A stretch of 64,000 nt of DNA from Candidatus Harrisonbacteria bacterium (GCA_016192685.1 JACPTS010000001.1:161710-225709); one strand, 5' to 3'; numbered from the stretch's first letter, positions 1,758-58,056 are shown. Made by a program: numbers and translations. Notes: generated from the sequence alone by a model not told the origin.

Positions 1758-1829
1758 AATACGGACAATAAATTTATTTTACCTCCGAATCGGTTAAAAA
1801 TAAACCCGAAACCCGACATTTCTGTTATA

Positions 1830-4023: not shown

Positions 4024-5870
4024 TTTTGAGCGATATAAATCGGAAATTTATCCAAAAAAGCCAGCGCGAATTCCGGCGCGATTAATAATTTTCTTCCGTT
4101 CCCGATTATTTTAACATCTTTAAAACCCGATCTCAAAAGAGATTTCTTTTCTCCCCAAAGATTATTATAATATTGGGTTACTTTTCCAAAATCATACCTC
4201 TCAATTCTCCAGTGCGGACCGATTTTTAATCTGCCGATATTATTCAAAAATATCCTCCGGCTGGTTTTTGTTCTGGGGATGCAAAGACCGTTGTGGCTGG
4301 AATAAATTAAAACTCCGCCGGGCCTCAAAACTCTCTTCATTTCTTTTATGGCATTTTCCCTTTCTTCCAAAGAAGGCAGATTATCTATTCCATTGAACGA
4401 AAAAAATACGGCATCAAAACTATTGTCTTTAAAATCCAGCTTTCTGGCGTCCATCGCCCTGAAATCAATGCTTGGATAGTCTTTTTGGGCTTGCTCAATT
4501 AAAGGGAGAGAAATATCAACGCCAATAACCCCGCACCCGTTTTTAAAAATATAATAAGTAGTCCTGCCGGCTCCGCATCCGACATCCAATACCCGGGAAC
4601 CGGCCGGCATATATTTTTTAATTACATATTCTTCGCCCGGACGCAAATATTTTTTTGAATATTCCTTAACTGAAAGTTCGGAAGAAAAAGAACGGGTATT
4701 TTCCAGGCCGATTTCAGTTATCTGATTTTTGGAAATTCGTTCAATAAAAGCCAGAATGCTTTCCACTCTTTTTTGCCAGGTATATTTTTTAACATCAATC
4801 AAAGCTTGGGCAACAAGGCCTTCTGAAAAATCGCGGTTTTCAAAAATTTTGATTATAGCCGCGGCCAGATCTGATGGACTGTTCGGAGAAATTAATACGG
4901 AATTATGATTATTAAAAATCTCTTTGAGCGAGGGTAAATTAGTGGTAATAATCGGCCGGCCGGAAGCCATATATTCAAAAACTTTAAGCGGCGACATATA
5001 AAAATTATAATGTTCGTTTTCCGGAAAAGGGGCGATCAAAACATCAAAGGCCCTTAAATATAACGGAATCAAATCGTGTTTTACCATGCCGACAAAAATA
5101 ATTCTGTCTTCTAAATTTCTTGTTTTGGCCTCATTTTTATAAAATTTTATGTCGTCTTCGTGACCTCCCACTAAAACCATAAGAATATCCCGGTGATTTC
5201 TTAAATCAGCAAGAGCCCCAATAGCCGTATCAATGCCTTTTTCCATACCCAAAGTTTTTAACATTCCCGCGTAACCGATGATTTTTTTATCCAATGGCAG
5301 ATTTAATTTCTTTCGGCATTCATCCTTGGTCAAATTAATATTAAATTTTTCCAAATCCACCGCATCAGGCGCAACCAAAATCTTATCAGGAGCTATTCCC
5401 AATTTTACCAATCGCTCTTTTATAAAACTGGTTAAAACAACCAGAGCCTTGGCGCGTCTCATAACCAGCAAATAAAAATTACCGGCGCCCCTGGACAAAG
5501 AATGAACCTCTAAAACAACGCCGCTAAAAAATATCCCGGCGGCCGGCTCTCTGGAATAAAGCAAGTCGTAGTTGGAGAATAAAAGTCTTAATCTGGAAAT
5601 CAATAAAAAACTGTATAGCTGTATAAAAAACGCTATCCGGCTGCCCATAAACCATGGGAAAAGATCCAGACAAAATATTTTTTTTATTAAAAAATTTTTC
5701 TTTATTCCATAATGGTCAAAAGGGTCCTGTTCTTTCTCTATTCTCCTGGGAACCCAAAGCTCAACTTCACAGCCATTTTCCGCGAAAGCCGAGCACATCT
5801 GCATCACTTGAAAACCATGCGCCAAATTGGTGGGCAATCTTGAATTAGAAATATAAATCAGCTTTTTCAT
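4020..5870 (-). CDS. bifunctional GT4 glycosyltransferase (N-terminal) fused to a class I SAM-dependent methyltransferase (C-terminal)
   Basis: GT4 motif EYMASGRPIITTNLPSL; C-terminal VLDVGCGAGRTTYYIF...DNSFDAVFF...LRPGGVLIY (methyltransferase motifs I-III). Confidence 0.7.
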   Translation of the reverse strand: MKKLIYISNSRLPTNLAHGFQVMQMCSAFAENGCEVELWVPRRIEKEQDPFDHYGIKKNFLIKKIFCLDLFPWFMGSRIAFFIQLYSFLLISRLRLLFSNYDLLYSREPAAGIFFSGVVLEVHSLSRGAGNFYLLVMRRAKALVVLTSFIKERLVKLGIAPDKILVAPDAVDLEKFNINLTKDECRKKLNLPLDKKIIGYAGMLKTLGMEKGIDTAIGALADLRNHRDILMVLVGGHEDDIKFYKNEAKTRNLEDRIIFVGMVKHDLIPLYLRAFDVLIAPFPENEHYNFYMSPLKVFEYMASGRPIITTNLPSLKEIFNNHNSVLISPNSPSDLAAAIIKIFENRDFSEGLVAQALIDVKKYTWQKRVESILAFIERISKNQITEIGLENTRSFSSELSVKEYSKKYLRPGEEYVIKKYMPAGSRVLDVGCGAGRTTYYIFKNGCGVIGVDISLPLIEQAQKDYPSIDFRAMDARKLDFKDNSFDAVFFSFNGIDNLPSLEERENAIKEMKRVLRPGGVLIYSSHNGLCIPRTKTSRRIFLNNIGRLKIGPHWRIERYDFGKVTQYYNNLWGEKKSLLRSGFKDVKIIGNGRKLLIAPEFALAFLDKFPIYIAQK

Positions 5871-6702: not shown

Positions 6703-8466
6703 TTATTTAATTACTTTGAAAATTAAATTGTTTTCCACGGCGGCCGCTAATTCCAAAAAAGGATAATTCATAAATTCTTTCTCTAAATAGCCGTATTCGC
6801 TATCGTCCCTATCCAATAAAATATAATCAGCGGAATATTGCTTCAAAGATTTTTCAAATCCAAGTTCTCTGTAAAAATCAATTTTTTTTAAAATTCTATC
6901 AACATATTCTTTCGGAACCAATGTGCTCGGCCTGGTCTTAACCTTAAAAAGACCCAAAATCTTGTTGCGAATCACTTCATTTTGGTATCTTTCTATAAAT
7001 TTATTGGTCCAAATATTCATATTTTCTCCCTCAATATATCCGCCATCAATTCCCTTTTTGAAAAAGTTTTGCGCAATCCATCGATTTTCCAATTCATCGT
7101 CAGAAATCAGAAATCGGCCGACATCGGGATTCCAAAAAACATTGTTGGAAGTATAAATAGGAATAAACCAGCCATAATTTTTTCCAAGCGAATAAACAGC
7201 GGAATTTTTCGGGGAATTATCATTAAACCAATCCGCCACGCCGGAAAGCTTTTGCCAATCCTTCAATGCGGAAATATTCGCAGGCATTATAAACCAAGAA
7301 GAGCCGAATTCAATTCCCTTTCTCTCCCGATAAAATAAAAAGCTTAAAAGAAGCAATATTAAAATAACCGCTAAATAACTTTTAGCGTTTAAAATATTGC
7401 TTTTATAATTCTTCCAAATTATTGAAGCGCAAAAAGCGAAAATTAAGAACAAAAACAATACCACAATCGGATAATAATGCGTTGAAAAAGAAAGCGCCTT
7501 GCCAGTCAGAACATTTTGCCAATTCAATGCCGTGCCGCCCAAAACCAAACTATAAACAAAAATATTTTTTTTGTAATCGGCGCCTTTGCCAATAAAATAC
7601 CAAATCACCAAACCAGCGACGATAAGCGAAACATTAAAATAGGCAGCCGGGTAATGATTCAATAAAAATCCAAAGCGGAACCAAATATCAATATAATCAG
7701 GATATGATTCCGCTTTCTTCAAATTCAAAAAATATGGAATAACAAATAACGCGGCGGGAATGATAAAAAGCAAAAAATTCTTAAAGTGATAAACTATTCT
7801 TTTCTCCTTAATAGCTAAAAAAAGCAGGGTTAGGCAATAAACGGCCAGAATAGCCGCCCAACAATAAGGATAAATATATAAAACCGCGCTGGAAACCATA
7901 GCCAAAATAAAATTCAATATTGCCAGCTGCTTCCAAGTTTTTTCTTTATCGCTGATAATTTTCAAAACCAATAACAAACCTAAAAACAAAAAAATAAAGC
8001 TGAATTGCGGATTAATGGGCCTATTAAAATAGAAAATAAATAATAAATAATAAAAAGCGGAAAAAATACTGGCCATAACCCTAGACTCAACCAATTGCAA
8101 TATCAAAAAATAGAGAATTGCCACGCCCATAAAGGGCAATAAAAAATCATTTATCGCCGCCGCGGCCGGAACAGATAAATTAATAAATTTCGCTTCAAAA
8201 GCCAAAATAATTTCTGCCAATGACGGAGTTATGTAGGGTTCGTCTTTATGTTCTTTTAAATAAACATTTCCAAAATTATAATGACCGTCATAAGCCTCCT
8301 TAGTCATGGCTATATAATGAGTCTCGTCATTATTAAACATCGGGAAAATACCCTTAAAATCAGGTCCAATTTTGCTGATAACAGAAATGGTCGGGAAAAC
8401 AATCAATACTCCTATTGTAAAAGCAAATAAAAAAATAAAGCCGTGCTGTTTTAGGAATTGCTTCAT
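6703..8466 (-). CDS. polytopic membrane protein, GT-C-like (possible glycan polymerase/transferase)
   Basis: 587 aa with more than 12 transmembrane helices; DE-containing first loop (FNNDETHYIAMTKEAYDG) similar to the neighbouring GT-C genes. Confidence 0.4.
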   Translation of the reverse strand: MKQFLKQHGFIFLFAFTIGVLIVFPTISVISKIGPDFKGIFPMFNNDETHYIAMTKEAYDGHYNFGNVYLKEHKDEPYITPSLAEIILAFEAKFINLSVPAAAAINDFLLPFMGVAILYFLILQLVESRVMASIFSAFYYLLFIFYFNRPINPQFSFIFLFLGLLLVLKIISDKEKTWKQLAILNFILAMVSSAVLYIYPYCWAAILAVYCLTLLFLAIKEKRIVYHFKNFLLFIIPAALFVIPYFLNLKKAESYPDYIDIWFRFGFLLNHYPAAYFNVSLIVAGLVIWYFIGKGADYKKNIFVYSLVLGGTALNWQNVLTGKALSFSTHYYPIVVLFLFLIFAFCASIIWKNYKSNILNAKSYLAVILILLLLSFLFYRERKGIEFGSSWFIMPANISALKDWQKLSGVADWFNDNSPKNSAVYSLGKNYGWFIPIYTSNNVFWNPDVGRFLISDDELENRWIAQNFFKKGIDGGYIEGENMNIWTNKFIERYQNEVIRNKILGLFKVKTRPSTLVPKEYVDRILKKIDFYRELGFEKSLKQYSADYILLDRDDSEYGYLEKEFMNYPFLELAAAVENNLIFKVIK

Positions 8467-8479
8467 ACAAAAAAATATA

Positions 8480-9214
8480 TCATACGAATATCTTATGCCG
8501 CAACCAAAAATAAAATCCGCTTAGCTTAAAAACAAATTTAAATAATGAAGTATTCGCGTAGATATCCGTGCGATTATTTAAAACCCTTGCGCCTCTCTCG
8601 TTCAAAAAGGAGGTGATTAGCTGATTTCCGGCTCCTTTTGGAAAAACAAAAACATCGGGATAACTATTTTCCTTAAAATTTTCTTTAATAAAATTTTCGG
8701 ATTTTTTATACTCCAAAACAATTTCAGCCTCGGTTAATTCTGAAAAAGATTTATGGGAATAGCCATGATTGGCTATGGCCGCGCCGCTCTTTTCCAAACT
8801 CTTAAGATCCGGAAGGGAGCAAATGCTTCTCTGTTTATCTTTTTCCTTCGTGGCAAAAACAGCCTTTTTCCCCAATAAAGCCGGGTTAATAAAAACAACT
8901 GCCGGAAAATTATATTTTTTCAAAATCGGCATGGCATTTATAAATATATCTTTAAAAGCGTCATCAAAAGTGATAAGAACGTTTCTGCCTTTCAATTTTA
9001 ATAATCCGTTTTTGAAATCTAAAAAATCTTGCAAGCTTATGACTTTCGCCCCGCTTTTATCCAAAAAGGCCATCTGCTTTTCAAAGTTGCCGCTGGATAC
9101 GGAAATCGGCGTTTCTCCGTCAGAGACCGAATGGTAAATTAATACCGCCGGAGACGCAAAAAATAACTTATCTATTTTAATTAATAAAAAATTAAAAATC
9201 GGTAAAAAAATCAT
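8480..9214 (-). CDS. polysaccharide deacetylase (NodB/CE4 family)
   Basis: VLITFDDAFKDIF..., NFPAVVFINPALLG, IANHGYSH. Confidence 0.7.
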   Translation of the reverse strand: MIFLPIFNFLLIKIDKLFFASPAVLIYHSVSDGETPISVSSGNFEKQMAFLDKSGAKVISLQDFLDFKNGLLKLKGRNVLITFDDAFKDIFINAMPILKKYNFPAVVFINPALLGKKAVFATKEKDKQRSICSLPDLKSLEKSGAAIANHGYSHKSFSELTEAEIVLEYKKSENFIKENFKENSYPDVFVFPKGAGNQLITSFLNERGARVLNNRTDIYANTSLFKFVFKLSGFYFWLRHKIFV

Positions 9215-9266
9215 TTTATCAATAAAACAACTGGTTCCGAATTAAGGTTATATATAAGTATAACGC

Positions 9267-10436
9267 ATGAGAATCACTTTTTTAACAACCCAAATCAATC
9301 TTAAAACCGGAGGCGGATCTAACCTTACCCCCCATTTAAAAGCTTCCTCAATGCGAAAACTCGGCTATGAAGTAAGAATGATTACGTTTTTTCCGGAAAA
9401 AAATGCTTTTCTGGAAAAACCGCCTTATTTCGTGATAGAATCGCCGACTAAGTTCAAAAATTGGCTGATGCTCCAATTAAAAATATTTTTCGTTCTTAAA
9501 AAATACGAAAATACTTGCGATGTTTTTGCTTTTGAGGGCGAACATTTTATTTGGGGTGCCGGCCTTTATCGCTTGTTAAACGGCAAAACGCCGATTCTTT
9601 TGCATTTTAACGGCCCAATTTTTTCCATCTACGAAAATGGCACAACCTATAAAGCCGAATATCTTCCCAAAAAATCAATAAAGGCAAAAATATCGTTCTG
9701 GTTAAGAATAATATTTGAAAAAAATATCGGATTACTCTGGGCAAATAATATTGACATTTTTACCGCTGATTCTCCGTTAATTAAAAATTGGCATGAAAAT
9801 TTCGGATTTGATAAAAATAAAATTGTGGTCTTACCGGAATTCGTGGATTTAGAATCGTACTTTAAAAAATCAGCGGCTGAAAGCGCGGCCAAAAAAGATA
9901 AAATAAACCTTATCTATGTCGGAAGACTGGCTCCGGAAAAAGGCGTTGATACTCTTTTAACCGCGATAAAAGAAATGAAAAATAAAACGGATGTTTTAGT
10001 CCGCATAGTCGGCGACGGACGCCAAAAAGAAGAACTGATAAAACTCGCGCGCGAGTATAAAATAGAAAATACTGTTATTTTTTATCCATGGGCTGATAAA
10101 AAAACTCTGGCTGACTTATATCATTGTTCTGATATATTCGTGCATCCGGCGCGATGGGCCGAACCTTTTGGCGTAACTATAGTTGAAGCAATGGCCTCCG
10201 GTCTGCCCGTAATCACGCCGAAAATCAGCGGGTCATCCTGGGCTGCCGGAGAAGGGGGCCTTACGTTTGAAAACGGCGATTCCGAAGATTTAAAAAACAA
10301 AATAGAAAAATTAGTTAATGATGAAAATCTTAGAAAAAAACTGGCTGGGAAAGCGAAAAAACGGGCAGAACAATTTGATTACAGAAATTACATAAAAACA
10401 TTGGAAAATCTGATTAAAAAAATAGCGATAACTTAA
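9267..10436 (+). CDS. GT4 family glycosyltransferase
   Basis: ARWAEPFGVTIVEAMASGLPVITPKISG (E-x7-E motif). Confidence 0.8.
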   Translation: MRITFLTTQINLKTGGGSNLTPHLKASSMRKLGYEVRMITFFPEKNAFLEKPPYFVIESPTKFKNWLMLQLKIFFVLKKYENTCDVFAFEGEHFIWGAGLYRLLNGKTPILLHFNGPIFSIYENGTTYKAEYLPKKSIKAKISFWLRIIFEKNIGLLWANNIDIFTADSPLIKNWHENFGFDKNKIVVLPEFVDLESYFKKSAAESAAKKDKINLIYVGRLAPEKGVDTLLTAIKEMKNKTDVLVRIVGDGRQKEELIKLAREYKIENTVIFYPWADKKTLADLYHCSDIFVHPARWAEPFGVTIVEAMASGLPVITPKISGSSWAAGEGGLTFENGDSEDLKNKIEKLVNDENLRKKLAGKAKKRAEQFDYRNYIKTLENLIKKIAIT

Positions 10437-30831: not shown

Positions 30832-31767
30832 TAAAAGGCAGTAATTTGAGGTCCGACAATCGGGAAAGAATTATTTTTAGTAATCGTAGCTACGCGGTTA
30901 AGGTCATTATAGTCGTAAGCCGAAACATCCAAGACAGATTCAATATCTAACCGAACATATGGTTTTTCCGCTCCGTAACTATAAGTAACAAAATACCCCA
31001 ATACATAATAACTATTTCCGGAGACGATTAGCCCCTTATTTTCTTTAGTTTCATTGGGAATAAGCTTAAATTCAACAACTCCACTTTGAGAAATATCCGC
31101 TTCCGCCAATACCGGACCACTATCCGCGTTAGCTAATAATTTAAATTTCGTAAGATAAAGATTATTAAAAGTGCCTTTATTTTTAAAGCGAATTTGGGTA
31201 ATAGCGATTTTTTCGTCCGCGGAAACTTTAAAAGCGGTTAAAGTTTTTTCTCCGTAACTGCTTAGGGTTATTGATGGATAGGTTGTTTCAATCTTGAGCG
31301 TGCTTTCAAAAGGATTGGGTAAGATTACTGCCGGGGTTGTAGTGGCAACAGCTTCTTCTAAAACTGGTTTAGGCTCTGGCATTGATGCTGGCTCCGGCGC
31401 TTGGGTCGGTGCCGGAGCTGGAGCTGAAACCGCTGCCGGTGCTTGCCCTGAGCTTGCCGAAGGGCCGCCCATTTTCGCCCGAGTTCTCGGACCAAAATAT
31501 CCGGCTGCCGGAGAAACTCCGTTCGCGGCCTGCCATTTGGCAAGAGCTTTCTTGGTTAGAGAACCGAAGGTTTCGGTTTCATTGCCAGGAGAGCCTGCGC
31601 CGCTAAGAGGTAAGGGGGGTGGGAGCTGCTAATTGAGTTTGCAAGTTAGCGATTTGCGCTAACAAGGCTGCAATTTGCTCTTCCAAAGTTGCTCCGTGGA
31701 CGACTGTCAATACGCCAACGCCAGAAAGCGAAACAATTGTAGCCGCTAATAATAATTTCTTTTTCAT
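30831..31767 (-). pseudogene. secreted PG-binding Ser/Thr/Pro-rich surface protein, paralog of the N-terminus of ORF 33555..37193, interrupted by a +1 frameshift in a G6/C6 homopolymer (31614..31619)
   Basis: The ATG at 31767 gives MKKKLLLAATIVSLSGVGVLTVVHGATLEEQIAALLAQIANLQTQLAAPTPLTS*, with the stop at 31603..31605. The downstream frame reopens at 31628 and continues as ...SGAGSPGNETETFGSLTKKALAKWQAANGVSPAAGYFGPRTRAKMGG... to 30831. Deleting one G from the run fuses the two into a continuous 311-aa ORF. Confidence 0.5.
31466..31698. repeat. copy 1 of a duplicated DNA cassette (139 bp plus 75 bp identical segments) encoding the signal-peptide-proximal and PG-binding module shared with the gene at 33555..37193
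   Basis: 31466..31604 is identical to 36778..36916; 31624..31698 is identical to 37019..37093. Confidence 0.85.
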
Positions 31768-36500: not shown

Positions 36501-37193
36501 AGCATCATCTAATAAGAGAACGCTGTCCAAAGCCGCGTCAGCAGCTAAACCAGTTCTTTCTACTGTTAATCCGGTAACAGTTACATCGCCGTCAGCAGAA
36601 GCAGTCAAGTAAACCTTAGTAAAAGGAATTCTTGCCGCATCGCCAGGAGCGAGAGTCGCTGTTGGCTGGTCTGGAGCTAACGTTACCGTTAATCCAGTGC
36701 CTTGCGGTGTTACTACCACCACTGGAGCTGGCGTTGTACCGCCAGTTGTTGGAGCTGGTGCTGGAGCCGCTGCCGCGCCGCCCATTTTCGCCCGAGTTCT
36801 CGGACCAAAATATCCGGCTGCCGGAGAAACTCCGTTCGCGGCCTGCCATTTGGCAAGAGCTTTCTTGGTTAGAGAACCGAAGGTTTCGGTTTCATTGCCA
36901 GGAGAGCCTGCGCCGCTATATTGCTGTAAGGCCTTGACTGCCGCTCCTTTGCTGCCGAGGGTGAGGTCCCCAGAAGAGGTAAGGGTAGCGGAAGCAGTGC
37001 CTGTTCCAGCTGATTCTTGAGCTGCTAATTGAGTTTGCAAGTTAGCGATTTGCGCTAACAAGGCTGCAATTTGCTCTTCCAAAGTTGCTCCGTGAGCAGC
37101 CATTGGAAGCAAAGTTCCTGCTCCGGAAAGGGAAATAACTGTCGCAATTGATACGACAGCTGTAGAAACTTTGTTAATTAATTTATTTTTCAT
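33555..37193 (-). CDS. giant secreted Thr/Ser/Gly/Ala-rich cell-surface protein with N-terminal signal peptide and peptidoglycan-binding-like domain (S-layer-like, candidate O-glycosylation substrate)
   Basis: 1212 aa. Signal peptide MKNKLINKVSTAVVSIATVISLSGAG, then a coiled segment, then a PG_binding_1-like LGSKGAAVKALQQY...ETFGSLTKKALAKWQAANGV...GYFGPRT, then more than 1000 aa of low-complexity T/S/G/A-rich beta-like repeats. Confidence 0.7.
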   Translation of the reverse strand: MKNKLINKVSTAVVSIATVISLSGAGTLLPMAAHGATLEEQIAALLAQIANLQTQLAAQESAGTGTASATLTSSGDLTLGSKGAAVKALQQYSGAGSPGNETETFGSLTKKALAKWQAANGVSPAAGYFGPRTRAKMGGAAAAPAPAPTTGGTTPAPVVVVTPQGTGLTVTLAPDQPTATLAPGDAARIPFTKVYLTASADGDVTVTGLTVERTGLAADAALDSVLLLDDAGNQLGLKKTLSSEHKATVGESMKVAAGTTKVVTVAANRAAVGGSYGGQTLALRVTAVNTSAAVNGALPLTGTTHTINETLTIGSVTMARGPLDPGASQTKEIGTTSYTFSSVKVTAGSAEKVYLKSIRWNQTGSAGSSDLGNVKTVVDGTSYDTTISSDGKYYSSVFPGSGILIDKGFNKEVNLKGDVVSGSSRTIDFDLAKRTDLFVVGETYGYGIIPPQTGSTDPTDDTAAFSNTEDPWYDAAQVLVSTGTMTVSADNTVAAQNIAINLADQPLGGWSVDVKGEQISVGSIKMHITLTQSSGTTGLGLDDLDNVKLIDAATGKTLAGPVDPSSTALDTAGTANLTFTDTITFPVGVTKLKMVGKLAAGTTAFENNDTIVASTTPSSDWGTVTGQATGVTVTPSPTSKVSGQTMTAKGPAMTVSVSSVPIAQTVIAGVQQFEFAKYILDTAASGEDLRLTSLPLEYNIPSGSATDLTNCKLYDGATLLTTGGNVVNPSARGSSTSFTFDGTGLTLTKGATKQLSLKCDLKSAATGSYRWGYDSDSSPSPTGLVSGQSATVTENDNMGQLMSATTNGSFAVTLEATENYLVASPGETVTLSRLKYSATNEDVSIKQLTLILSDGASNTPVDLVNQEVTLWDGATKLGTATFSSNDNATSTTITGFTVPKDGSKVLTVKGTLAGISASGPLVKSGDLLKVDYDGGGGLTSNYGTGLSSGQTITPTSALASSTGVRIMRAYPTFEAGTLANKTLQAQDGLPLYRFKITAKQGDINLFKLSFSVSSSTAASSNATTTKFSLYAFTDSGYSSPDGDFSGANNAGGLINAGNCYNGRTSGASAATGGNLGTGSALVEIFPDKTGCALGTTTMKIPSGESRWFELRGSVGTLAPSGTAENLSVQLEGDSAYPTLTPGQYVGSGGVTAGTLGSASTINSDGQNDFIWSPRSTSSNESNLQYQYNLDWTNGYGVTGLPATNMTATTLSK
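36778..37093. repeat. copy 2 of the duplicated cassette (N-terminus of the giant surface protein gene)
   Basis: see copy 1. Confidence 0.85.
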
Positions 37194-51286: not shown

Positions 51287-51580
51287 ATGAAAACCAACGG
51301 ACAACTGCCGATTCAAGAATTGGAAGAGTGCGTTAAAAAACTTCAAGAAACTGAAGACGGCAACTATATCGTCTGGGCCGCTATCGGACCGGATGATCAC
51401 TTTCTCAAAGACCAGCAAGGCAAAATTATTGCCAGCACTTCCCCAATTGATATCCAATCAAAAATAGAGGAATGTTATCCGGAATTGGCAAAAAAGAAAA
51501 CTTATCACCTTAAACCTCTGACCGAAGAATACCTGGAAAGAATTAAAACCAGAAGTATTTATCCAAGACTCCCTCATTAG
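51287..51580 (+). CDS. hypothetical protein
   Basis: 97-aa ORF, no recognisable motif. Confidence 0.3.
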   Translation: MKTNGQLPIQELEECVKKLQETEDGNYIVWAAIGPDDHFLKDQQGKIIASTSPIDIQSKIEECYPELAKKKTYHLKPLTEEYLERIKTRSIYPRLPH

Positions 51581-52425
51581 AGGGAGTTTAATTTGTAAAA
51601 ATTTTTAAATATCTCGGCAACTAATATCGGTCCGGTTCCGCCCGGTGTGGGAGTATAAAAGCTTAAATCATGAAGCTTAAAACTTGAAACATCTAAATCT
51701 CCGTGAATTTTTTTCGTATCTGTTTCATGTTTCATGTTACATGTTTCATCGCACAAGCTGTAGCCAAAATCAATAACGCCCGCGCCTGGCTTTAACATTT
51801 CCGGCTTTATTAAGCCGCCTTTTCCAACCGCGGTAATCACCAAATCCGCTTCTCTAATTTTTGATAAATCACTTTTGCTGTGGAAAATAATTAATTCTTT
51901 ACATTTGCCCCGCAGCCAATCCGCCATTGGTTTCCCGACCAAAAATCCCCTTCCAACCACCGCTATCACTTTAGTCTTAAGTTCATAATCTCTGGTCTGT
52001 AGTATATCTTTAACCACTTCCACTGGCAGCGGCGAAACAAATTTTTGGCTTTCCGGCGTCAGCGCGTCAATATCTTGTTTCGGGTTAATTGCGGCTAAAA
52101 CCGTGTCGCGGTTAAAATGCGGCGGCAGGGGCAATTGCACGATTAAACCGCCGATTTCAGGATCAGCGCCGATTTTCTTAATTTCCGAAATTAAATCTTC
52201 CTCTAAAATTTCATCTCCAAATTGAAATAATTCAAAAACTATTCCCAATTCTTTAGCCATCAGTTCTTTCTGCCGCAAAAAACTTTTGGACTGCGCCGCT
52301 TGAGGTGAGCCCGTCGAACCAACTAAAATCGCGGCCAGAATTTTATTTGGTTTTGATAATTTTTTTAAATCTGAAATAATATCACTTGCTAATTTTTTAC
52401 CGTCAATTACCATGCGATTTTCCAT
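51577..52425 (-). CDS. folD: bifunctional methylenetetrahydrofolate dehydrogenase/cyclohydrolase FolD (with C-terminal-region insert)
   Basis: ILVGSTGSPQAAQSKSFLRQK, LIVQLPLP, VIAVVGRGFLVGKPMA, TPTPGGTGP; insert CNMKHETDTKK...SSFKLH encoded at 51660..51750. Confidence 0.85.
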   Translation of the reverse strand: MENRMVIDGKKLASDIISDLKKLSKPNKILAAILVGSTGSPQAAQSKSFLRQKELMAKELGIVFELFQFGDEILEEDLISEIKKIGADPEIGGLIVQLPLPPHFNRDTVLAAINPKQDIDALTPESQKFVSPLPVEVVKDILQTRDYELKTKVIAVVGRGFLVGKPMADWLRGKCKELIIFHSKSDLSKIREADLVITAVGKGGLIKPEMLKPGAGVIDFGYSLCDETCNMKHETDTKKIHGDLDVSSFKLHDLSFYTPTPGGTGPILVAEIFKNFYKLNSL

Positions 52426-53387
52426 TACAAAATCATTCTTATCGCCTTGGCAATTTTCTCCGAATCATGCCGCACGAAACCTTTCGGCCTTAATAAATCG
52501 GCGGTTACCGGCATAAAATTTTTATTCAGGCGGATATTCCCTAAATCCGGCTCAACAAATTCCGCCCGTTCTTTGATATAACCGGCTAATCGCCGCGGCG
52601 ACGGTTTCCGGTTATTGATAATGGCAAAATCCAAAACTTCTTTTCCCAGATAAGACTGCAAAGTATTAATAAAATCAGAAGCGGAAAAATTATTGGTTTC
52701 CCCGAATTTAGTCATTAAATTGGTGAAGTAAGCCACTTTCGCTTTAGTTTTTTGAAGCGCCTCTCTCATTCCTTTTACCAGCAAATTAGGAATTAAACTG
52801 GTGTATAAATCTCCCGGACCGATAATTACTAAGTCAGCTTCTAAAATCGCTTTCCGGGCATTAGGATTAAGCGCCGCTTCCGGCTTTAGCCAAACTCTTT
52901 TTATTTTTATCCGGCCGTCATGGTTGGGAATATCAATATTGGTTTCTCCTTTTATAATTTGGCCGTCTTCCAATTCGGCTAAAAGCTGCGCCCGATCAAG
53001 GGTAACCGGCACCACCTTTCCTTCTGCCAGCAAAATTTTACCGGCCTCCTCAATGGCTTGCTCAAAATCATCGGTAATCCGATGAAGGGCGGTAATTAAT
53101 AAGTTGCCGAAAGTATGGCCAGCCAGCCCCACCCCTTCTTGAAACCGATAAGAAAATAAATTCGCGAGCATCTTATTATCCGAAGCCGAAAGGGCAATTA
53201 AAGCCCGGCGGATATCTCCGGGCGGAAGCATTCCAAATTCTTCCCGCAGAATGCCGGTGGATCCGCCGTCGTCGGCCATCGTGACAATCGCGGTCAAATT
53301 TTTAAAATGCGGCTTGAGGGCGGTAAGAACCGTAAAAACACCGGTGCCGCCGCCGATAACTACAATCTTTTTATTAGCTTGCTTCAT
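52425..53387 (-). CDS. yvcK: YvcK/CofD-family gluconeogenesis factor (UPF0052)
   Basis: KKIVVIGGGTGVFTVLTALK...AIVTMADDGGSTGILREE...LPPGDIRRALIAL. Confidence 0.8.
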   Translation of the reverse strand: MKQANKKIVVIGGGTGVFTVLTALKPHFKNLTAIVTMADDGGSTGILREEFGMLPPGDIRRALIALSASDNKMLANLFSYRFQEGVGLAGHTFGNLLITALHRITDDFEQAIEEAGKILLAEGKVVPVTLDRAQLLAELEDGQIIKGETNIDIPNHDGRIKIKRVWLKPEAALNPNARKAILEADLVIIGPGDLYTSLIPNLLVKGMREALQKTKAKVAYFTNLMTKFGETNNFSASDFINTLQSYLGKEVLDFAIINNRKPSPRRLAGYIKERAEFVEPDLGNIRLNKNFMPVTADLLRPKGFVRHDSEKIAKAIRMIL

Positions 53388-53456
53388 CTCTCAATAATTA
53401 TAACCTCCTATTCTTCCAATTGTTTTTCCAATTAGCTAACAATGCGTTGGAGATTA

Positions 53457-53945
53457 TTATTGAAATAAGCTCCAAATTAAAAATCCAAGCATTACTGTAA
53501 TCAAAGCCAGTTTTATCGCGCTGCCAGCCAGAAATCCAATGGCTGTTCCTTTCGCGGATTGCAAAGCTTGCCCCGATTCTTTTCCTTCAAATAATTCTCC
53601 CAGAAAAGCGCCGAGAAGCGGCCCGATAACAATTCCAATCGGACCCAAAAAGGCAACTCCTAAAATCACGCCGATAAATGAACCGATTATTCCAAAGCGG
53701 CTGGCATTATATTTTTTTGCCCCAATTATTGGCGCAATTATGTCCACCGCCATTGTCAGCAAAACAAATCCTAAAAATATTAAAAGCGCTTTCCAGGTAA
53801 TTGCGGCAAAATTAGTCGCGTAAGCGAAAATCAGCATTCCCAGCCAAGCCATTGGGACTCCGGGCAATAAGGGGAGTATTACGCCCAATCCTCCGGCAAT
53901 CATTAATAGGAAAGATAAAATGATGAGTAAAATTTCTGCTAACAC
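53457..53945 (-). CDS. DUF456-family membrane protein
   Basis: 162 aa, 4 transmembrane helices, GGLGVILPLLPG. Confidence 0.5.
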   Translation of the reverse strand: MLAEILLIILSFLLMIAGGLGVILPLLPGVPMAWLGMLIFAYATNFAAITWKALLIFLGFVLLTMAVDIIAPIIGAKKYNASRFGIIGSFIGVILGVAFLGPIGIVIGPLLGAFLGELFEGKESGQALQSAKGTAIGFLAGSAIKLALITVMLGFLIWSLFQ

Positions 53946-53959
53946 ATTATAATAATAAC

Positions 53960-54334
53960 ATGAGAATAATTATCCCGAAATTAAGCACTGCCCTTCCCAA
54001 TTTTTTACGGCAATGCGGCTATACGCAAATTTCCAATCCCCATAAAAATCAAGAAGTTAGTTATGCCCGCAGTCTGAACCCGGGCCGATTTTATCCGCGT
54101 TTTCACGCTTATCTAGAAATTGGCTCCGTGGAAACAAAAATTAATCTGCACCTGGACGCTAAAAAACCAAGCTACGAAGGAACCACTGCCCACAGCGGCG
54201 AGTATGAAGGCGCGCTGGTGGAGAAAGAGGCAGAACGGATAAAAAATGCCGCTCAAAAATTCCTTTCCCAAACGCCGTCTCAACCCCTTGGCTTTCAAAA
54301 GAAAAAATCATTCTGGAAGCGGCTATTTTCATAA
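53960..54334 (+). CDS. hypothetical protein
   Basis: 124-aa ORF. Confidence 0.3.
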   Translation: MRIIIPKLSTALPNFLRQCGYTQISNPHKNQEVSYARSLNPGRFYPRFHAYLEIGSVETKINLHLDAKKPSYEGTTAHSGEYEGALVEKEAERIKNAAQKFLSQTPSQPLGFQKKKSFWKRLFS

Positions 54335-54390
54335 AGCTCCGCGCAGCAAGCTGCGGAGTATTCGGCGACGGAGAATAAAAATTGGGCCGC

Positions 54391-54702
54391 TTAAAGCGGC
54401 CCAAAAATATATTTAATCAAGGCGGCAATAACTAACAGCAAAACCAAAAACAAAATCGCGCAAACAACAGACTGCCGCCAGCTGACAATTTTATAAATGC
54501 GGTCTTCTACCGGCACCGCCACTGCCGAACACCACTCACACTTTGGCTTTTCCCAATAATCAAACAAAAAGCCGCGGGTCCAATGGCCAACTACCAATTT
54601 CCCGCCGCACTTTAAACAGCAGCCAAACCAAAACCATTTAAGCTTGTTCCGCCAGGTGGCTCGGTTTTTTTGGACTTCATCCAAAAGCTTATTCGGATCC
54701 AC
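54391..54702 (-). CDS. hypothetical Cys/Trp-rich protein with C-terminal transmembrane helix
   Basis: 103-aa ORF. Confidence 0.3.
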   Translation of the reverse strand: MDPNKLLDEVQKNRATWRNKLKWFWFGCCLKCGGKLVVGHWTRGFLFDYWEKPKCEWCSAVAVPVEDRIYKIVSWRQSVVCAILFLVLLLVIAALIKYIFGPL

Positions 54703-54797
54703 CGCTTTGAATTATTTTCAAGCTTTCCTGACCTCAAATTAACACTAAAAAAAGAGCAGGTCAATCAGGGTGCCTAGAGGGAATCACAAATAATTTG

Positions 54798-54869
54798 GGA
54801 GGCATACCGGATTCGAACCGGTGCAAACGCTGCCACAGAGCGTTGTGCTGCCGCTACACCAATGCCTCC
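54798..54869 (-). tRNA. tRNA-His (GTG) with encoded G-1
   Basis: Manual fold: G-1, acceptor GAGGCAT/ATGCCTC, C73, anticodon stem ACGCT/AGCGT with loop CTGTGGC, T-arm ACCGG-TTCGAAT-CCGGT. Confidence 0.8.
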
Positions 54870-54898
54870 ATCTTGGCCCTAAACCCTATTTCTAAACT

Positions 54899-55384
54899 TT
54901 ATTTATAAAGAATTAACCTTCTTGCATAGCCATGATCAACTTTTAATTTCTTGCCAATCTTCCTATAGGATAAACCCCGCCCTCTTAAAAATTTACAAGC
55001 TTTTATCTTTTTCTGCAAACATAATTTATTTTTAAATTGATTAGATACTATTTTTGCGACTATTGGAATAGTTTTTCGCGCAATACCTTTTTTAACTATT
55101 AAATAAGGGTAAATACTTTTAAGAAAAAATAGAACGTCTTTTTGGCGCGCGATGCAATATACCCAATTTTCTTTCCAATGAGGTTTTCTTTTTTTGGCCT
55201 TACAAATATTGCCCATCCCGGAAAAATCTTGAATTTCTTTTAAAACTCCCTCGTGGGTTTGGGGAATTGCAATACGATAATCATTTTTACCGTTTTTCAC
55301 TATATTTCCTTCCCCGTCTACAAATCCAGCTATATAACCCCAATTGATATTCATAATCCCAAGAATAACATATTCTGGTGACAA
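54899..55384 (-). CDS. free-standing LAGLIDADG homing endonuclease
   Basis: WGYIAGFVDGEGN (LAGLIDADG motif), 161 aa, basic C-terminus. Confidence 0.7.
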   Translation of the reverse strand: MSPEYVILGIMNINWGYIAGFVDGEGNIVKNGKNDYRIAIPQTHEGVLKEIQDFSGMGNICKAKKRKPHWKENWVYCIARQKDVLFFLKSIYPYLIVKKGIARKTIPIVAKIVSNQFKNKLCLQKKIKACKFLRGRGLSYRKIGKKLKVDHGYARRLILYK

Positions 55385-55551
55385 ATACTATATACCACTT
55401 ATAATTAAAATCACCAAAATATTAACTTTAATTTATCTTTACTTAAAGATTCAAAGAAAGTCTAGAAAACAAAAAGCCCCGCTAGGATGCGGGGCCACCT
55501 TAAGCAGGAGCTTAAGGATTTGATTGGAGAGGAGTTGTAGGACTGGCCGTC

Positions 55552-55884
55552 CTACGCAGGCACGACGATGAGCATCTTGGGCCGATCCGGAATGGCTTTG
55601 AAAAAGCCGTTCCCCCGGAGATCCACCCCGTAATGCCGTGCGATCTTTCCGAGCACGCGCCGGCTGATCCGCTTCGGAAAGCGGTTCCGGATCTCGGCCA
55701 TCACCCACTGCTCGGCGGTCATCTCGCCGTAGTGATAGTAGAGCTCCTTGACCGATGGCATCGCCGGCAGGCCCAGCCGCTGAATCAGCGGCGCGAGCGG
55801 CACGAGCGGCTCCTCCGTGATCTTCCGGCTCTTGTTCAGCCGGAAGATGTCCAACAGCGACAGCGCGGCATTCTTGAGGTTCAT
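55552..55884 (-). CDS. hypothetical protein in a compositionally foreign (about 60% GC) segment, possibly a mobile-element remnant
   Basis: 110-aa ORF; GC content far above its surroundings; followed by GC-rich terminator hairpins at 55465..55484 and 55514..55532. Confidence 0.35.
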   Translation of the reverse strand: MNLKNAALSLLDIFRLNKSRKITEEPLVPLAPLIQRLGLPAMPSVKELYYHYGEMTAEQWVMAEIRNRFPKRISRRVLGKIARHYGVDLRGNGFFKAIPDRPKMLIVVPA

Positions 55885-55968
55885 GGCTCCACCTCTGCTT
55901 TATTTAGGTACATAAGCTTTTCAGCTTACAAAATAAGTATAGCATACTTTAAAGCTTTTGTCAATAGT

Positions 55969-55990
55969 GCCTGGGCGGTGAATCCGCTTC
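55969..55990 (-). repeat. partial direct duplicate of the tRNA-Phe 3' end (acceptor/T-arm remnant), adjacent to a degenerate copy of the intron 3' hairpin
   Basis: tgcctgggcggtgaatc is identical to 56164..56180; the hairpin cgagcacataaagcattatgtgctcg (about 56050) resembles the intron hairpin ccgagcatataaattttatatgctcgg. Confidence 0.6.
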
Positions 55991-56163
55991 GCTAGAACAC
56001 TCGCCCTTCGGGCTCTTTGGAACCCAGCGGTTCCAACCCGAGCACATAAAGCATTATGTGCTCGGTGCCTCCGCCACGAGAAAACTCCCGTTTTCCCGAC
56101 CCCTTTCCCGTGTTCGATTCACCGCAAAAATTTAAAAACGGCATTCGCCGTTTTTAAATTTTG

Positions 56164-56464
56164 TGCCTGGGCGGTGAATCGAACACCGGACGCCAGCCTC
56201 TTCCAAGGCTAACTTGGACTATATCATCACCGAGCATATAAATTTTATATGCTCGGGCTAGGCGCTTCGTCCCGCAATGCGGGACTACTCCCCGAAAGGA
56301 TAGTCTCTACACCTTCAACGATTACAAAATCGAAGCTTGGCTCGGGATTCCCAAATAAAAATGTCATTTGACCTTCCCCGAATTCACCTAGTTTTTCAAC
56401 CCCGCTTACGCGGGGAAGCCCCAAAGAATTTGAGGGCTGCGCTCTACCACTGAGCTACCCAGGC
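56164..56464 (-). tRNA. tRNA-Phe (GAA) interrupted by a group I intron between positions 33 and 34 (5' exon 56464..56433, 3' exon 56203..56164)
   Basis: Exons fold into a cloverleaf: acceptor GCCTGGG/CCCAGGC, D-arm GCTC-AGTGGTA-GAGC, anticodon stem CAGCC/GGCTG, loop CT|GAAGA, T-arm CGGTG-TTCGATT-CACCG, A73. Confidence 0.7.
56204..56432 (-). mobile_element. group I intron (229 nt, no ORF) in the tRNA-Phe anticodon loop
   Basis: P1: exon GCCCU pairs with intron GGGGC, with U.G at the splice site. P10: intron UCUUU pairs with the 3' exon GAAGA. P7 elements AGAGACUA (R) and GAUAUAGUCC (S). Terminal G before the 3' exon. Confidence 0.7.
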
Positions 56465-56568
56465 ATAAATATAATTTAAACAAAATTGGCATTTAATTCA
56501 AGTTATTGACTTATTAAACTAACTGAAATATCTTTAAACTAACTTTAAAAACCGCATAAGAGTTTGTT

Positions 56569-57585
56569 ATGGACGAATCGAAAAGAGAAGAATTAACCGA
56601 TAGCGGATATTCCTGGAATTTTCTTTGGTATGCCTTGCCAGCCGCCTTTATACTCTTGGTTGGTTATCAATCCTGCCGCAAAAATAAAAATTATAACTCT
56701 AATTTGGAAGCCGGCATTCCTCCGGGGGTAAATTTATACAGCCAGCCGATCAGCTCTGCCACCGCCAAAGAAAAAATTGCCGTGATTTCCATTCAGGGGG
56801 AAATCAGCCCCAAAAACAACATGGTGGAAATTACTATTGCCAAGCTGAAATCGGCAGCAACGGATCCGGATATAAAAGCCGTAATTCTTAAAATAGAAAG
56901 CCCCGGCGGCGATGTAAATTCTACCAATTTAATTTGGAATGAAATAAATAAATTAAAAACTTCAAAAAAGCCGGTAATTGCTTTTTTTAATTATATAGCG
57001 GCTTCCGGAGCTTATTATATTTCGGCGCCGGCTGATAAAATCGTATCCACCCCGGAAACCTGGACCGGCAGCATCGGAGTTATTTTCCAATCTCTCAACC
57101 TTTACGGATTAACTGAAAAATTGGGAGTCAAAATGATGACCATTAAATCGGCGGCCAACAAAGATATGCTTTCCCCATATCGCCAGCCGGAACCGGAAGG
57201 TGAAAAAATCATGCAGGCGCTTGTTAACGAAAGCTATGATGCTTTTGTTGGGGTGGTAAGCCAAGGAAGAAAAATGAACGAGGTCAAAGTCCGAAAATTG
57301 GCCGACGGCAGAATTTATTCCGCCAGACAAGCAAAAGAAAATGGATTAGTGGATGAGATCGGTTACTTTGAAGATGCGGTTAAACTAGCCAAACAATTAA
57401 GTAAATCCGAAGAGGCATCCGTAGTGGAAATTCAAGAAAGAATCAGCTTTTCCGGATTATTTTTTAATCAATTTTTAACTAAAAATGATTCTCCGCCGTT
57501 AAAGTCAATGGAGAAATTGCTGCCTAAAAGCGGATTATATTATATTGATCCGGCTTTACTGATAATGTACCAAAGCAATCATTAA
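56569..57585 (+). CDS. sppA: signal peptide peptidase SppA (S49 family, 36K type)
   Basis: KIAVISIQGEI, AVILKIESPGGDV, KPVIAFFNYIAASGAYYIS, TGSIGVIFQ. Confidence 0.85.
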   Translation: MDESKREELTDSGYSWNFLWYALPAAFILLVGYQSCRKNKNYNSNLEAGIPPGVNLYSQPISSATAKEKIAVISIQGEISPKNNMVEITIAKLKSAATDPDIKAVILKIESPGGDVNSTNLIWNEINKLKTSKKPVIAFFNYIAASGAYYISAPADKIVSTPETWTGSIGVIFQSLNLYGLTEKLGVKMMTIKSAANKDMLSPYRQPEPEGEKIMQALVNESYDAFVGVVSQGRKMNEVKVRKLADGRIYSARQAKENGLVDEIGYFEDAVKLAKQLSKSEEASVVEIQERISFSGLFFNQFLTKNDSPPLKSMEKLLPKSGLYYIDPALLIMYQSNH

Positions 57586-57624
57586 AAATTAAGCGCGCTC
57601 CGATTTATCGGAGCGTTTTATATT

Positions 57625-57696
57625 GTCTCCCCGCGAAGAATCGAACTTCGATCTACTCCTTAGAAGGGAGTCGTTCTATCCGTTGAACTACGGGGA
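57625..57696 (-). tRNA. tRNA-Arg (TCT)
   Basis: Manual fold: acceptor CTCCCCG/CGGGGAG, D-arm GTTC-AACGGATA-GAAC, anticodon stem ACTCC/GGAGT with loop CTTCTAA, T-arm CGAAG-TTCGATT-CTTCG. Confidence 0.7.
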
Positions 57697-57706
57697 GGTA
57701 TATAAC

Positions 57707-57780
57707 TTGGTCGGAGTGCTGGGAATCGAACCCAAGCCGCGTGCTCCCAAAGCACGTATACTGCCATTATACGACACTCC
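57707..57780 (-). tRNA. tRNA-Pro (TGG), CCA encoded
   Basis: C1-G72 acceptor CGGAGTG/CACTCCG, A73, CCA; anticodon stem CGTGC/GCACG with loop TTTGGGA (G37); T-arm TTGGG-TTCGATT-CCCAG. Confidence 0.7.
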
Positions 57781-57897
57781 GATTATTCTATATTACCCAA
57801 AATTATAGCTAAAAAGCAAAAATTGACGAATTTGAATATATGTTTATAATAATAGTAACAATACCTAGCTCATTATAAATTTAAGCGATAACCGAAA

Positions 57898-58056
57898 ATG
57901 GCTAGGAAAAACTGCAAAAAAAGGCGCTGCCATAAACGCTTTCTGCCGTTGCCGAAAATTCCCCTGACCGAAACTCAAAGAAAAACCATAACCGATCCCC
58001 TGGAAATCCTTTCTGATAAATGGGGAAATCGCAAGCCTTTTAAAAAGGCGAAATAG
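57898..58056 (+). CDS. small basic hypothetical protein (52 aa), not in the ORF track
   Basis: MARKNCKKRRCHKRFLPLPKIPLTETQRKTITDPLEILSDKWGNRKPFKKAK; followed directly by a terminator hairpin. Confidence 0.25.
   Translation: MARKNCKKRRCHKRFLPLPKIPLTETQRKTITDPLEILSDKWGNRKPFKKAK

Follow-up and report, generated by a model that had tools for sequence, protein, structure and literature searches.

Genomes of the candidate phyla radiation (CPR) are tiny. We have analysed a 64-kb stretch of DNA (hereafter the window) from Candidatus Harrisonbacteria, a member of the CPR (Patescibacteria), and specifically an interval of about 1.7 kb that joins its tRNA-Phe and tRNA-His genes. All elements of the locus lie on the minus strand. 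Read in that direction, the order is tRNA-Phe 5′ exon, group I intron, 3′ exon, hairpin, a structured block, promoter, GC-rich open reading frame (ORF), two hairpins, LAGLIDADG endonuclease gene, tRNA-His and a tRNA-His fragment. The initial annotation had listed five elements here, all of which are present with only small corrections to their coordinates, and had read them as one integration scar at a hotspot for selfish and mobile DNA. Our results support the hotspot and not the single scar: compared with related loci (L numbers below), the interval is best described as four separate and independent modules, each recurring in relatives. We lean towards the view that it is a tRNA cluster (tRNA-Phe, small-protein cassette, tRNA-His) carrying at least three independent selfish or mobile elements. 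The anatomy of the modules, their family memberships, their synteny and presence or absence among relatives, and their conservation with compensatory changes are observations and are described in the order of the locus.

The tRNA-Phe gene and its group I intron

The first module consists of the following features:
56464..56433, minus strand: tRNA-Phe 5′ exon, identical to positions 1–32 of the L006 tRNA-Phe
56432..56204, minus strand: group I intron (RF00028) of 229 nucleotides (nt), no ORF, in the tRNA-Phe(GAA) anticodon loop between U33 and G34
56203..56164, minus strand: tRNA-Phe 3′ exon (feature to 56163 with one extra base); 56163–56180 is the first copy of the repeat described below

The 229-nt intron in the anticodon loop matches Rfam model RF00028 over its full length (model positions 1–253) with 73.3 bits, the gathering score being 50 (E = 4e-18). 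ARAGORN makes no tRNA-Phe call at this intron-bearing gene and the exons were set by hand. When joined, they equal the intron-less tRNA-Phe of L006 except for one base in the T-arm. P1 is AGCCCU/C...GGGGCU in the cmscan alignment, the last base of the 5′ exon is U, and that of the intron, which closes with ...CCUUG, is G.

ORF-less group I introns in the anticodon loops of bacterial tRNA genes have long been known. With those of tRNA-Leu(UAA), tRNA-fMet, tRNA-Ile and tRNA-Arg the present intron shares the absence of an ORF, the location in the anticodon loop, the pairing of the final U of the 5′ exon in P1, the final G of the intron and a sporadic occurrence among relatives; it is found in the window only, and the tRNA-Phe genes of L006, L013 and L017 have none. 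It differs from them in its host gene, tRNA-Phe(GAA), and in its site, 33/34, for which a limited literature search found no published description. Group I introns in CPR tRNAs have been noted already (PMC8172020). By its sequence the intron is a new case within a known class.

A structured block behind tRNA-Phe

Behind tRNA-Phe, at its T-loop, lies a non-coding element of about 180 nt, made up of a terminator-like hairpin and a structured block:
56127..56162, minus strand: terminator-like hairpin, perfect 16 bp, A/T-rich except for G+C in the middle, separating tRNA-Phe from the block
55967..56126, minus strand: structured block of about 160 nt, directly after the hairpin; its last 18 nt copy the tRNA-Phe 3′ end
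56125..56110, minus strand: 5′ arm of the block, reverse complement of the T-arm, followed by a purine-rich conserved junction
56098..56077, minus strand: helix P2, within the 80-nt core
56036..56017, minus strand: helix P3, within the 80-nt core
56013..56003, minus strand: hairpin P4, followed by GTGTTC-TAG
55994..55985, minus strand: mini-hairpin P5, preceding the 18-nt copy
55984..55967, minus strand: 18-nt copy of the tRNA-Phe 3′ end, last segment of the block

The direct repeat of the tRNA-Phe 3′ end is exact, as initially annotated, and is 18 nt long instead of 17 (55967–55984 = 56163–56180). According to our calculation, the chance expectation for an exact pair of 18-mers in 2.7 kb is about 5e-5. 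Its att-like form, a duplicated tRNA 3′ end beginning in the T-loop, is confirmed, and the insert between the two copies amounts to 178 nt without an ORF. An inverted T-arm fragment is also present; it is 20 nt long, 95% complementary to 56171–56190, and located at 56106–56125, not at 56120–56140 as first placed. The hairpin resembles a bidirectional terminator. Hairpins of like form and other sequence are found at the same place in L013 and L023.

Half-T-arm inverted repeats (GAACAC...GTGTTC) enclose the constant core of the block, and behind them come TAG, a hairpin and G. The constant 3′ part thus has the form GTGTTC-TAG-(hairpin of 10–29 nt)-G, after which comes the tRNA-derived GATTC... 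The 80-nt core itself reads GAATCGAACACGGGAAAGGGGTC, helix P2, GGCGGAAG, helix P3, AGAGC. On the left this constant part is flanked by the reverse complement of G57–C66 and on the right by the sequence from G57 to the tRNA 3′ end. The 5′ arm, reverse-complementary to the T-loop plus the 3′ strand of the T-stem, varies with the tRNA (CGGTG-AATC in the window, GAGGG-AATC in L023), the inner GAACAC being constant. Both boundaries of the constant part with tRNA-derived sequence are accordingly at C56/G57.

The degenerate copy of an intron hairpin that was reported before is present inside the block, with arms at 56038–56049 and 56054–56065 that resemble the intron P9 hairpin (56230–56256). More specifically, P9 (56228–56258) has an inverted copy 190 nt away, which by our count matches at 27 of 31 positions. 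This 31-nt palindrome, CACCGAGCACATAATGCTTTATGTGCTCGGG on the minus strand (56067..56037), occurs in the window block only and is missing in that of L013. It looks like a locally templated insertion, and could have come from templated repair or be a tiny mobile palindrome.

Occurrence and conservation of the block

Three block copies are available as DNA, those of the window, L013 and L023. The order seen in the window (tRNA-Phe, hairpin, block, promoter, ORF, endonuclease gene, tRNA-His, fragment) is repeated in L013, and the L013 block, located between the tRNA-Phe hairpin and the ORF promoter, is nearly identical to that of the window. The 3′ end of the L013 block, GGATTCCCGCCCAGGCAC, mismatches its own tRNA-Phe (...CACCCCCGCGGCAC) and matches the tRNA-Phe type of the window and L006, which indicates that the ends were fixed at insertion. 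L023, a Patescibacteria metagenome-assembled genome (MAG) found by a core 19-mer, carries tRNA-Ala(GGC), a hairpin, the block and then GATTCCCCCCAGGTCCACCA, a 20-nt copy (20/20) of the tRNA-Ala 3′ end from G57 through CCA. The tRNA-Phe genes of the window and L013 are followed by the block and those of L006 and L017 are not; the block is therefore polymorphic.

Mean column identity of the 80-nt core is 94% among the three sequences. In the block helices 51 of 51 cells pair, with three compensatory pairs and two G.U pairs. Helix P3 occurs in three versions with pairing kept (TTGGAACC/GGTTCCAA, TTGAAACC/GGTTTCAA and TTCAAACC/GGTTTGAA). Helix P2 contains one compensatory pair and two G.U pairs when read on the tRNA-sense strand; on the opposite strand the latter would be A.C mismatches.

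A six-frame search with the core peptide revealed seven further spurious metagenomic ORFs that contain the core (P0034–P0040). Five of them (P0034–P0037 and P0039) begin with a tRNA-gene-like peptide, whose sequence varies from one to another, and continue through a spacer into the core, and two show the tRNA 3′ end twice. The repeat is accordingly no local one-off, given the same block after tRNA-Ala elsewhere and the core beside tRNA-gene-like sequence in other metagenomic contigs.

Other searches added little. The covariance model found one copy in the window and none beyond those of the window, L013 and L023 in 119 kb (the window and 12 other loci), and Rfam 15 gave no credible match to the block in the window at E ≤ 1. 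A scan of genome contigs with the core 19-mer yielded one true copy (L023) and one chance match within a gene (L022). No block was seen in two IMG/VR pattern scans or in blastn against phage genomes. A recombinase is absent among the ORFs of window positions 53500–58000, and of a 36-kb contig with one block copy, the genes listed over about 19 kb around that copy are housekeeping genes only, with no recombinase. The block family appears to be undescribed.

A permuted transfer-messenger RNA (tmRNA) and a pseudo-tRNA with an acceptor stem were both considered for the block and rejected: candidates for the 5′ strand pair in registers that differ among the copies, and the window copy resembles Phe and not Ala. 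The Rfam hit of L023 to tmRNA_permuted is below threshold (29 bits vs 47) and rests on the T-arm of the real tRNA-Ala.

Several observations concern the surroundings of block copies. In JGI contig 3300050046, with genes at 8862–9487, a 110-amino-acid (aa) gene without Pfam match lies directly upstream of the block-bearing tRNA. After the block and tRNA-Ala repeat of L023 there are about 300 nt (about 7340–7640, minus strand) of 59–65% GC without a convincing ORF or Rfam match, and P0035 and P0038 also suggest GC-rich DNA behind other copies of the block. Three independent short-read assemblies (L001–L003) all end at window positions 56109–56111, inside the inverted T-arm repeat of the block. 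Note that this repeat breaks short-read assemblies at the locus and that standard tRNA finders miss intron-bearing tRNAs; both influence estimates of CPR genome completeness.

The GC-rich cassette

Beyond the block lies a compact expression cassette:
55964..55936, minus strand: promoter TTGACA-17-TGcTATACT (11/12 matches), within the 5′ region 55885..55964
about 55913–55928, minus strand: hairpin of the 5′ untranslated region (UTR); the Shine-Dalgarno sequence GAGGTGGAG is in the same 5′ region
55884..55552, minus strand: GC-rich ORF, 110 aa, G+C content at third codon positions (GC3) 0.87; orphan protein with a predicted N-terminal helix and winged-helix-like C-terminal domain
55475..55551, minus strand: 3′ UTR with a C/T-rich box, CCAAATCC and two hairpins
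55498–55517, then 55475–55496, minus strand: the 3′ UTR hairpins from the terminator scan, the second a terminator with a T-run

The segment of about 60% GC with a 110-aa ORF and its own terminator-like hairpins is thus present as first noted. Windows of 200 nt within 55500–55899 have 58–65% GC. The ORF has 62% GC, occupies the most GC-rich 333-nt stretch of the 64 kb, and has a GC content of 0.61, 0.38 and 0.87 at the three codon positions, GC3 being about 10 standard deviations above that of 44 long ORFs of the window (0.39 ± 0.05). The cassette promoter is the sole match to TTGACA-N17-TATA(A/C)T in the window.

So abrupt a shift in composition might come from mis-assembly or from a mis-binned chimera. 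We give this explanation practically no credence. Contigs from four separate SRA runs match 56404..51552 at 99.9–100% identity and reproduce both junctions in independent assemblies, host-like AT-rich sequence lies on either side of the segment, and the same cassette is found at the same place in at least six other genomes. The GC-rich segment is genuine.

The ORF encodes a real protein, judging by its pattern of substitution. A word-indexed search found 13 homologues, and exhaustive comparison with 1.84 billion proteins gave 22 representative clusters; they are 84–149 aa long and none has a name or Pfam domain. A hypothetical protein from a Candidatus Harrisonbacteria MAG has exactly the sequence of the window protein. 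Pairwise differences within the family are 0.33, 0.27 and 0.46 at the first, second and third codon positions, and indels are in frame. A structured RNA misread as an ORF is rejected by the same features, the third position being the most variable, by the GC pattern over the three codon positions and by the lack of an Rfam match. Constraint on synonymous sites at the RNA level is weak at most, codon identity being 0.60 where 0.50 is expected from the codon bias of the family. In every homologue with DNA available GC3 is 0.74–0.96, the hosts having 35–48% GC. As synonymous sites are near saturation, the GC3 bias is maintained and is not the residue of a recent transfer.

The AlphaFold2 model of the protein has a mean pLDDT (predicted local distance difference test) of 79 and exceeds 90 at residues 41–110, where the predicted C-terminal domain is arranged as helix-helix-strand-helix-hairpin. 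Winged-helix domains of MarR, F93 and MCM8 head the Foldseek matches in PDB without being significant (E ≥ 0.28), and Pfam HTH_26 matches with E = 0.11. Nothing usable for function was found in Pfam, PHROGs, NCBIfam or PADLOC, and tblastn of phage genomes was empty. A protein-pattern scan of genome contigs gave no further loci and a scan of metagenomes only an already known one.

Wherever contigs reach, the ORF lies upstream of tRNA-His (window, L006, L011, L013 and L014). In L006 the order is tRNA-Pro, tRNA-Arg, tRNA-Phe without intron, S49 peptidase, ORF and tRNA-His, with neither repeat nor endonuclease. L014 also has the cassette upstream of tRNA-His without repeat, intron or endonuclease. 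The same cassette with the same GC anomaly at these two loci contradicts the idea that the ORF is a foreign recent arrival, and its position outside the repeat pair contradicts the idea that it is cargo of a tRNA-Phe element. It had been said in advance that relatives with the same arrangement and no repeat would argue against the scar: L006 is largely such a case, with S49 elsewhere, and in L013 the arrangement is also kept while the repeat has decayed.

The promoter (TTGACA-17-TATAAT), 5′ hairpin, Shine-Dalgarno sequence GGAGGTGGAG and 3′ UTR (CCAAATCC and two hairpins) align in eight loci. L019 has the same flanks around an unrelated 103-aa ORF in a stretch of 55–61% GC; a distant homology of this ORF to the 110-aa family was rejected (hhalign probability 0.3). 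From these alignments we conclude that the cassette is probably an expression slot with exchangeable content. It would be an older syntenic resident whose coding content has been swapped between conserved flanks. Lasting GC3-rich ORFs in a conserved slot challenge the equation of a GC island with recent horizontal transfer.

Another variable insertion is seen in L011, where an AT-rich 214-aa ORF without family match (668–1312) lies between the GC-rich cassette and the endonuclease gene. The sole other stretches of the window above 56% GC, 31290–31730 and 36580–37060, share a near-identical DNA segment. They were rejected as cassettes, for they encode Ala/Pro/Gly/Thr-rich linkers of putative surface proteins (213 aa and 1212 aa).

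The LAGLIDADG gene and tRNA-His

The last module comprises three features:
55354..54899, minus strand: free-standing, single-motif LAGLIDADG endonuclease gene, 151 aa; stop codon 30 nt upstream of tRNA-His
54797..54868, minus strand: tRNA-His(GTG), type A allele (ARAGORN; Rfam tRNA 59.5 bits)
54768..54785, minus strand: tRNA-His fragment GATTCCCTCTAGGCACCC, a type B 3′ end from T-loop G57, 18 nt, 11 nt past the intact tRNA-His

The LAGLIDADG ORF is present as annotated; it has 151 aa from the ATG at 55354 that is shared by the family, not 161 aa from a TTG. Pfam LAGLIDADG_1 (PF00961) matches with 24.1 bits (cut-off 23.1) and PADLOC HEase with 1.5e-7. The family has 18 members, 46–85% identical to the window protein, in which D13-G14-E15-G16 is invariant. 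Against PDB the family profile finds I-MsoI with E = 3e-9 and I-CreI with 1.8e-4 or weaker. The match to these homodimeric, single-motif enzymes covers residues 6–125, the size of about 150 aa is alike, and the motif is YIAGFVDGEGS here and YIAGFLDGDGS in I-MsoI. E15 aligns with the catalytic Asp of I-MsoI, so that the present family has Glu instead of Asp at the catalytic position. It also differs by an added conserved C-terminal extension, which we read as possibly helix-turn-helix-like, and by its genomic setting: the genes for I-CreI and I-MsoI are inside group I introns of rRNA genes, and the present gene is free-standing.

In seven of seven loci (window, L011, L013, L017, L018, L019 and L021) the endonuclease gene stands between a terminator and tRNA-His, in no case encoded by an intron or intein. 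The gap to tRNA-His is 3–12 nt in relatives and 30 nt in the window. This constant linkage, together with the intron-less tRNA-Phe of L013 and L017, disagrees with the suggestion that the enzyme escaped from, or was ancestral to, the tRNA-Phe intron. Versions of tRNA-Phe with intron and endonuclease, for which a search in relatives had been suggested, were not seen in L006, L013 or L017, whose tRNA-Phe genes all lack an intron. Empty sites do exist: L006 and L014 have no endonuclease gene, and both have a type B tRNA-His.

Type A tRNA-His stands beside the endonuclease gene in five of the seven loci (window, L011, L013, L018 and L021). The displaced fragment GATTCCCTCTAGGCACCC agrees at every base with the 3′ end of L006's intact tRNA-His and is also found after the type A gene of L013; L011 has a diverged form of it after its type A gene. 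In the window the fragment is followed by a promoter-like TTGACC box whose position matches that of a TTGACA box downstream of the intact type B gene in L006. Hence, the endonuclease/type A unit replaced the native gene up to the T-loop. We propose that the endonuclease gene travels with the abutting tRNA-His, usually of type A, and that it overwrote the native type B gene, leaving the 3′ end from G57. As to the order of events, which we infer, L013 has TAGCGTAGCG followed by GATTCCCTC... before the tRNA-His fragment, the same right-end signature as TAGCGAAGCG followed by GATTCACC... of the window block; this suggests that an insertion of the block type at tRNA-His may have preceded the replacement. 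Between the window and L019 the endonuclease is 75% identical and the S49 peptidase 47%, and synonymous sites of the endonuclease gene are partly diverged. Selection on the endonuclease, its transfer between lineages, or the two together would therefore account for this. Taken with the empty sites of L006 and L014, its higher conservation than that of neighbouring genes is indirect evidence for putative homing.

The closest precedent for the endonuclease/tRNA-His unit is SegB of phage T4, a free-standing homing endonuclease in a tRNA cluster that recognises a T-psi-C stem-loop motif and drives the inheritance of the neighbouring tRNA genes (PMC2330249). Both systems have a free-standing gene among tRNA genes, relatives with homologous flanks without the gene, and neighbouring tRNA genes that are co-inherited. 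The T-psi-C stem-loop motif is part of the SegB site, and in the present locus it is in the T-loop that the displaced tRNA-His fragment begins. SegB is a GIY-YIG enzyme, whereas the present protein, of putative activity and presumed target, is of the LAGLIDADG I-CreI/I-MsoI type and has a conserved C-terminal extension in addition; it is encoded by the chromosome of a CPR cell instead of a phage, and the gene abuts tRNA-His in every locus examined. The pairing would be a cellular counterpart of SegB.

The likeness to SegB raises the question of whether the tRNA fragments and the block could be products of repair of T-arm breaks made by such a LAGLIDADG enzyme, with no discrete element at all. 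Both window fragments begin at G57, and SegB does recognise the T-psi-C motif of tRNA genes (PMC2330249). The window-only palindrome, as an inverted 27/31 copy of intron P9, is what templated repair synthesis would give, and the inverted T-arm duplication looks like snap-back repair. Independent repairs would, however, not yield the constant core that is found also after tRNA-Ala in another genome and in seven metagenomic ORFs. Moreover, the gene list of about 19 kb around one block copy has no endonuclease gene, and a cutter of the universal T-loop would be lethal unless highly selective. We hold this explanation to be improbable.

Two side observations belong here. An inverted repeat, TTGGTGA-N-TCACCAA (GGTGA...TCACC), lies at about 55377–55415 of the window and, in a by-eye comparison, also in L011, L013 and L019, and in each of the four loci it overlaps the region where the LAGLIDADG gene presumably has its promoter. 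The repeat is operator-like, and the C-terminal extension of the endonuclease itself might have its site there. In L018, positions 1128–4065 directly downstream of the endonuclease/tRNA-His pair encode a large serine recombinase of 524 aa (Resolvase/Recombinase/Zn_ribbon_recom) together with an AAA_25 protein, as if an element had integrated at tRNA-His in that genome.

Origin of the block

Integrative elements reportedly use the T-loop as a sublocation of tRNA genes, as described by Williams in 2002. The block shares with them the intact tRNA, a displaced or duplicated 3′ end beyond the insert and the polymorphism of the insert. The direct repeat from G57 (18/18 in the window, 20/20 in L023) and the existence of occupied and empty sites also agree with attachment sites of the integrase type in the T-loop; a recombinase gene in or beside the insert was not found. 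The block differs from such elements by an insert of only about 180 nt that lacks an integrase, by the inverted G57–C66 copy and the conserved structured core, and by the hairpin set exactly at the C56/G57 junction of the distal copy. CTX-phi, other integrative mobile elements exploiting Xer (IMEX) and integron attC use a folded single-stranded attachment site and a host recombinase. Like these, the block has no recombinase gene, and pairing of its two inverted T-arm-like segments can give a duplex similar to the target site and bulged where the crossover is presumed. The parallel is a tentative one: a single-stranded intermediate and a part of Xer or IntI are putative here, and a dif site is much longer than the T-arm.

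That the block is mobile, and by what mechanism, we infer from this anatomy. The block may be a small non-autonomous element, site-specific for tRNA T-loops, that restores the tRNA on insertion and would depend for its movement on a trans-acting recombinase or nuclease whose gene is elsewhere. Its active form could be DNA or RNA, and the paired inverted T-arm segments could serve as a folded attachment site. We tentatively put forward a further joint reading, which seems possible and less than probable to us: the block would represent a new class of small, recombinase-less, RNA-structured elements of Patescibacteria that insert at C56/G57 of various tRNAs, and the interchangeable ORFs with GC3 >0.74 in a fixed slot of AT-rich genomes would result from a local process of biased conversion or cassette exchange. 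On insertion such an element would copy the tRNA 3′ end directly and G57–C66 in inverted orientation, and it would be either integrative by a folded attachment site or RNA-guided or RNA-templated.

The main rival to a mobile element is that the block is a resident, functional non-coding RNA gene linked to the tRNA, in which T-arm and acceptor sequence would make up the closing helix and the 3′ tail. It might be a tRNA mimic or a processing or regulatory RNA, usually single-copy and placed after its tRNA of origin. The unpaired purine-rich junctions are strongly conserved, and so are the helices, the helix substitutions are compensatory or make G.U pairs on one strand only, the 64-kb window has a single copy and 119 kb none beyond the known ones, housekeeping genes surround one copy, and the viral contigs and phage genomes searched have none; all this would suit a resident RNA. 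It is harder to reconcile with the strong hairpin immediately upstream and the lack of a recognisable promoter in the window and L013, with the L013 tRNA-derived ends that did not follow the change in the adjacent tRNA and the degraded closing helix of that copy, with a tolerated 31-nt insertion in the window copy, with a 3′ third that is very different among copies, and with the absence of the block after tRNA-Phe in L006 and L017. A resident RNA is, in our opinion, rather unlikely.

A single element integrated into the tRNA-Phe 3′ end, with the 18-nt repeat as attL and attR and with the ORF and LAGLIDADG gene as cargo or debris, we regard as very improbable. An exact 18-nt repeat from the T-loop has the classical geometry of integrase sites in tRNA genes (PMC1635311), and the composition of the ORF is foreign-looking. 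Against this, only 178 nt lie between the repeats and both genes are outside, the window has no further copy of the tRNA-Phe end beyond these two at ≤3 mismatches, relatives that have no repeats carry the ORF cassette in synteny, all seven loci link the endonuclease to tRNA-His, and there is no integrase.

The view we favour, of a tRNA cluster with at least three stacked elements, has its own difficulties. A model of stacked elements leaves the GC3 anomaly of the cassette unaccounted for. The covariation score is reached by 23 of 500 shuffles, with three DNA copies only, and neither recombinase, transposase nor reverse transcriptase was seen near any block copy. The repeat length tracks the tRNA end (18 vs 20 nt) and is accompanied by the inverted G57–C66, unlike the product of a standard transposase or integrase. 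The gap between hairpin and block is too short for a promoter in the window and L013, which makes RNA expression putative. As for tRNA-His, the endonuclease gene of L017 is next to a type B gene and the allele of L019 is a hybrid, so that the link to type A is 5/7 only, and L018 and L021 have no displaced tRNA-His fragment.

Under the stacked-element view, one tRNA cluster of a small CPR genome would yet carry an intron, a tRNA-bound endonuclease and a structured element by which the interrupted tRNA is rebuilt. A mobile block would be a minimal tRNA-targeting element of unfamiliar insertion chemistry, and the C56/G57 junction rule can be tested directly. If it is a resident RNA, it would belong to an undescribed family of tRNA-mimicking non-coding RNAs.

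The neighbourhood of the cluster varies as well. An S49 signal-peptide peptidase gene lies at window positions 56569–57585 on the plus strand and has its counterpart at 2025–2921 of L006. Compared to L006 and L019, the window has it on the other strand and across tRNA-Phe, indicating that the cluster has also been rearranged. The orientation of tRNA-Pro is different as well.

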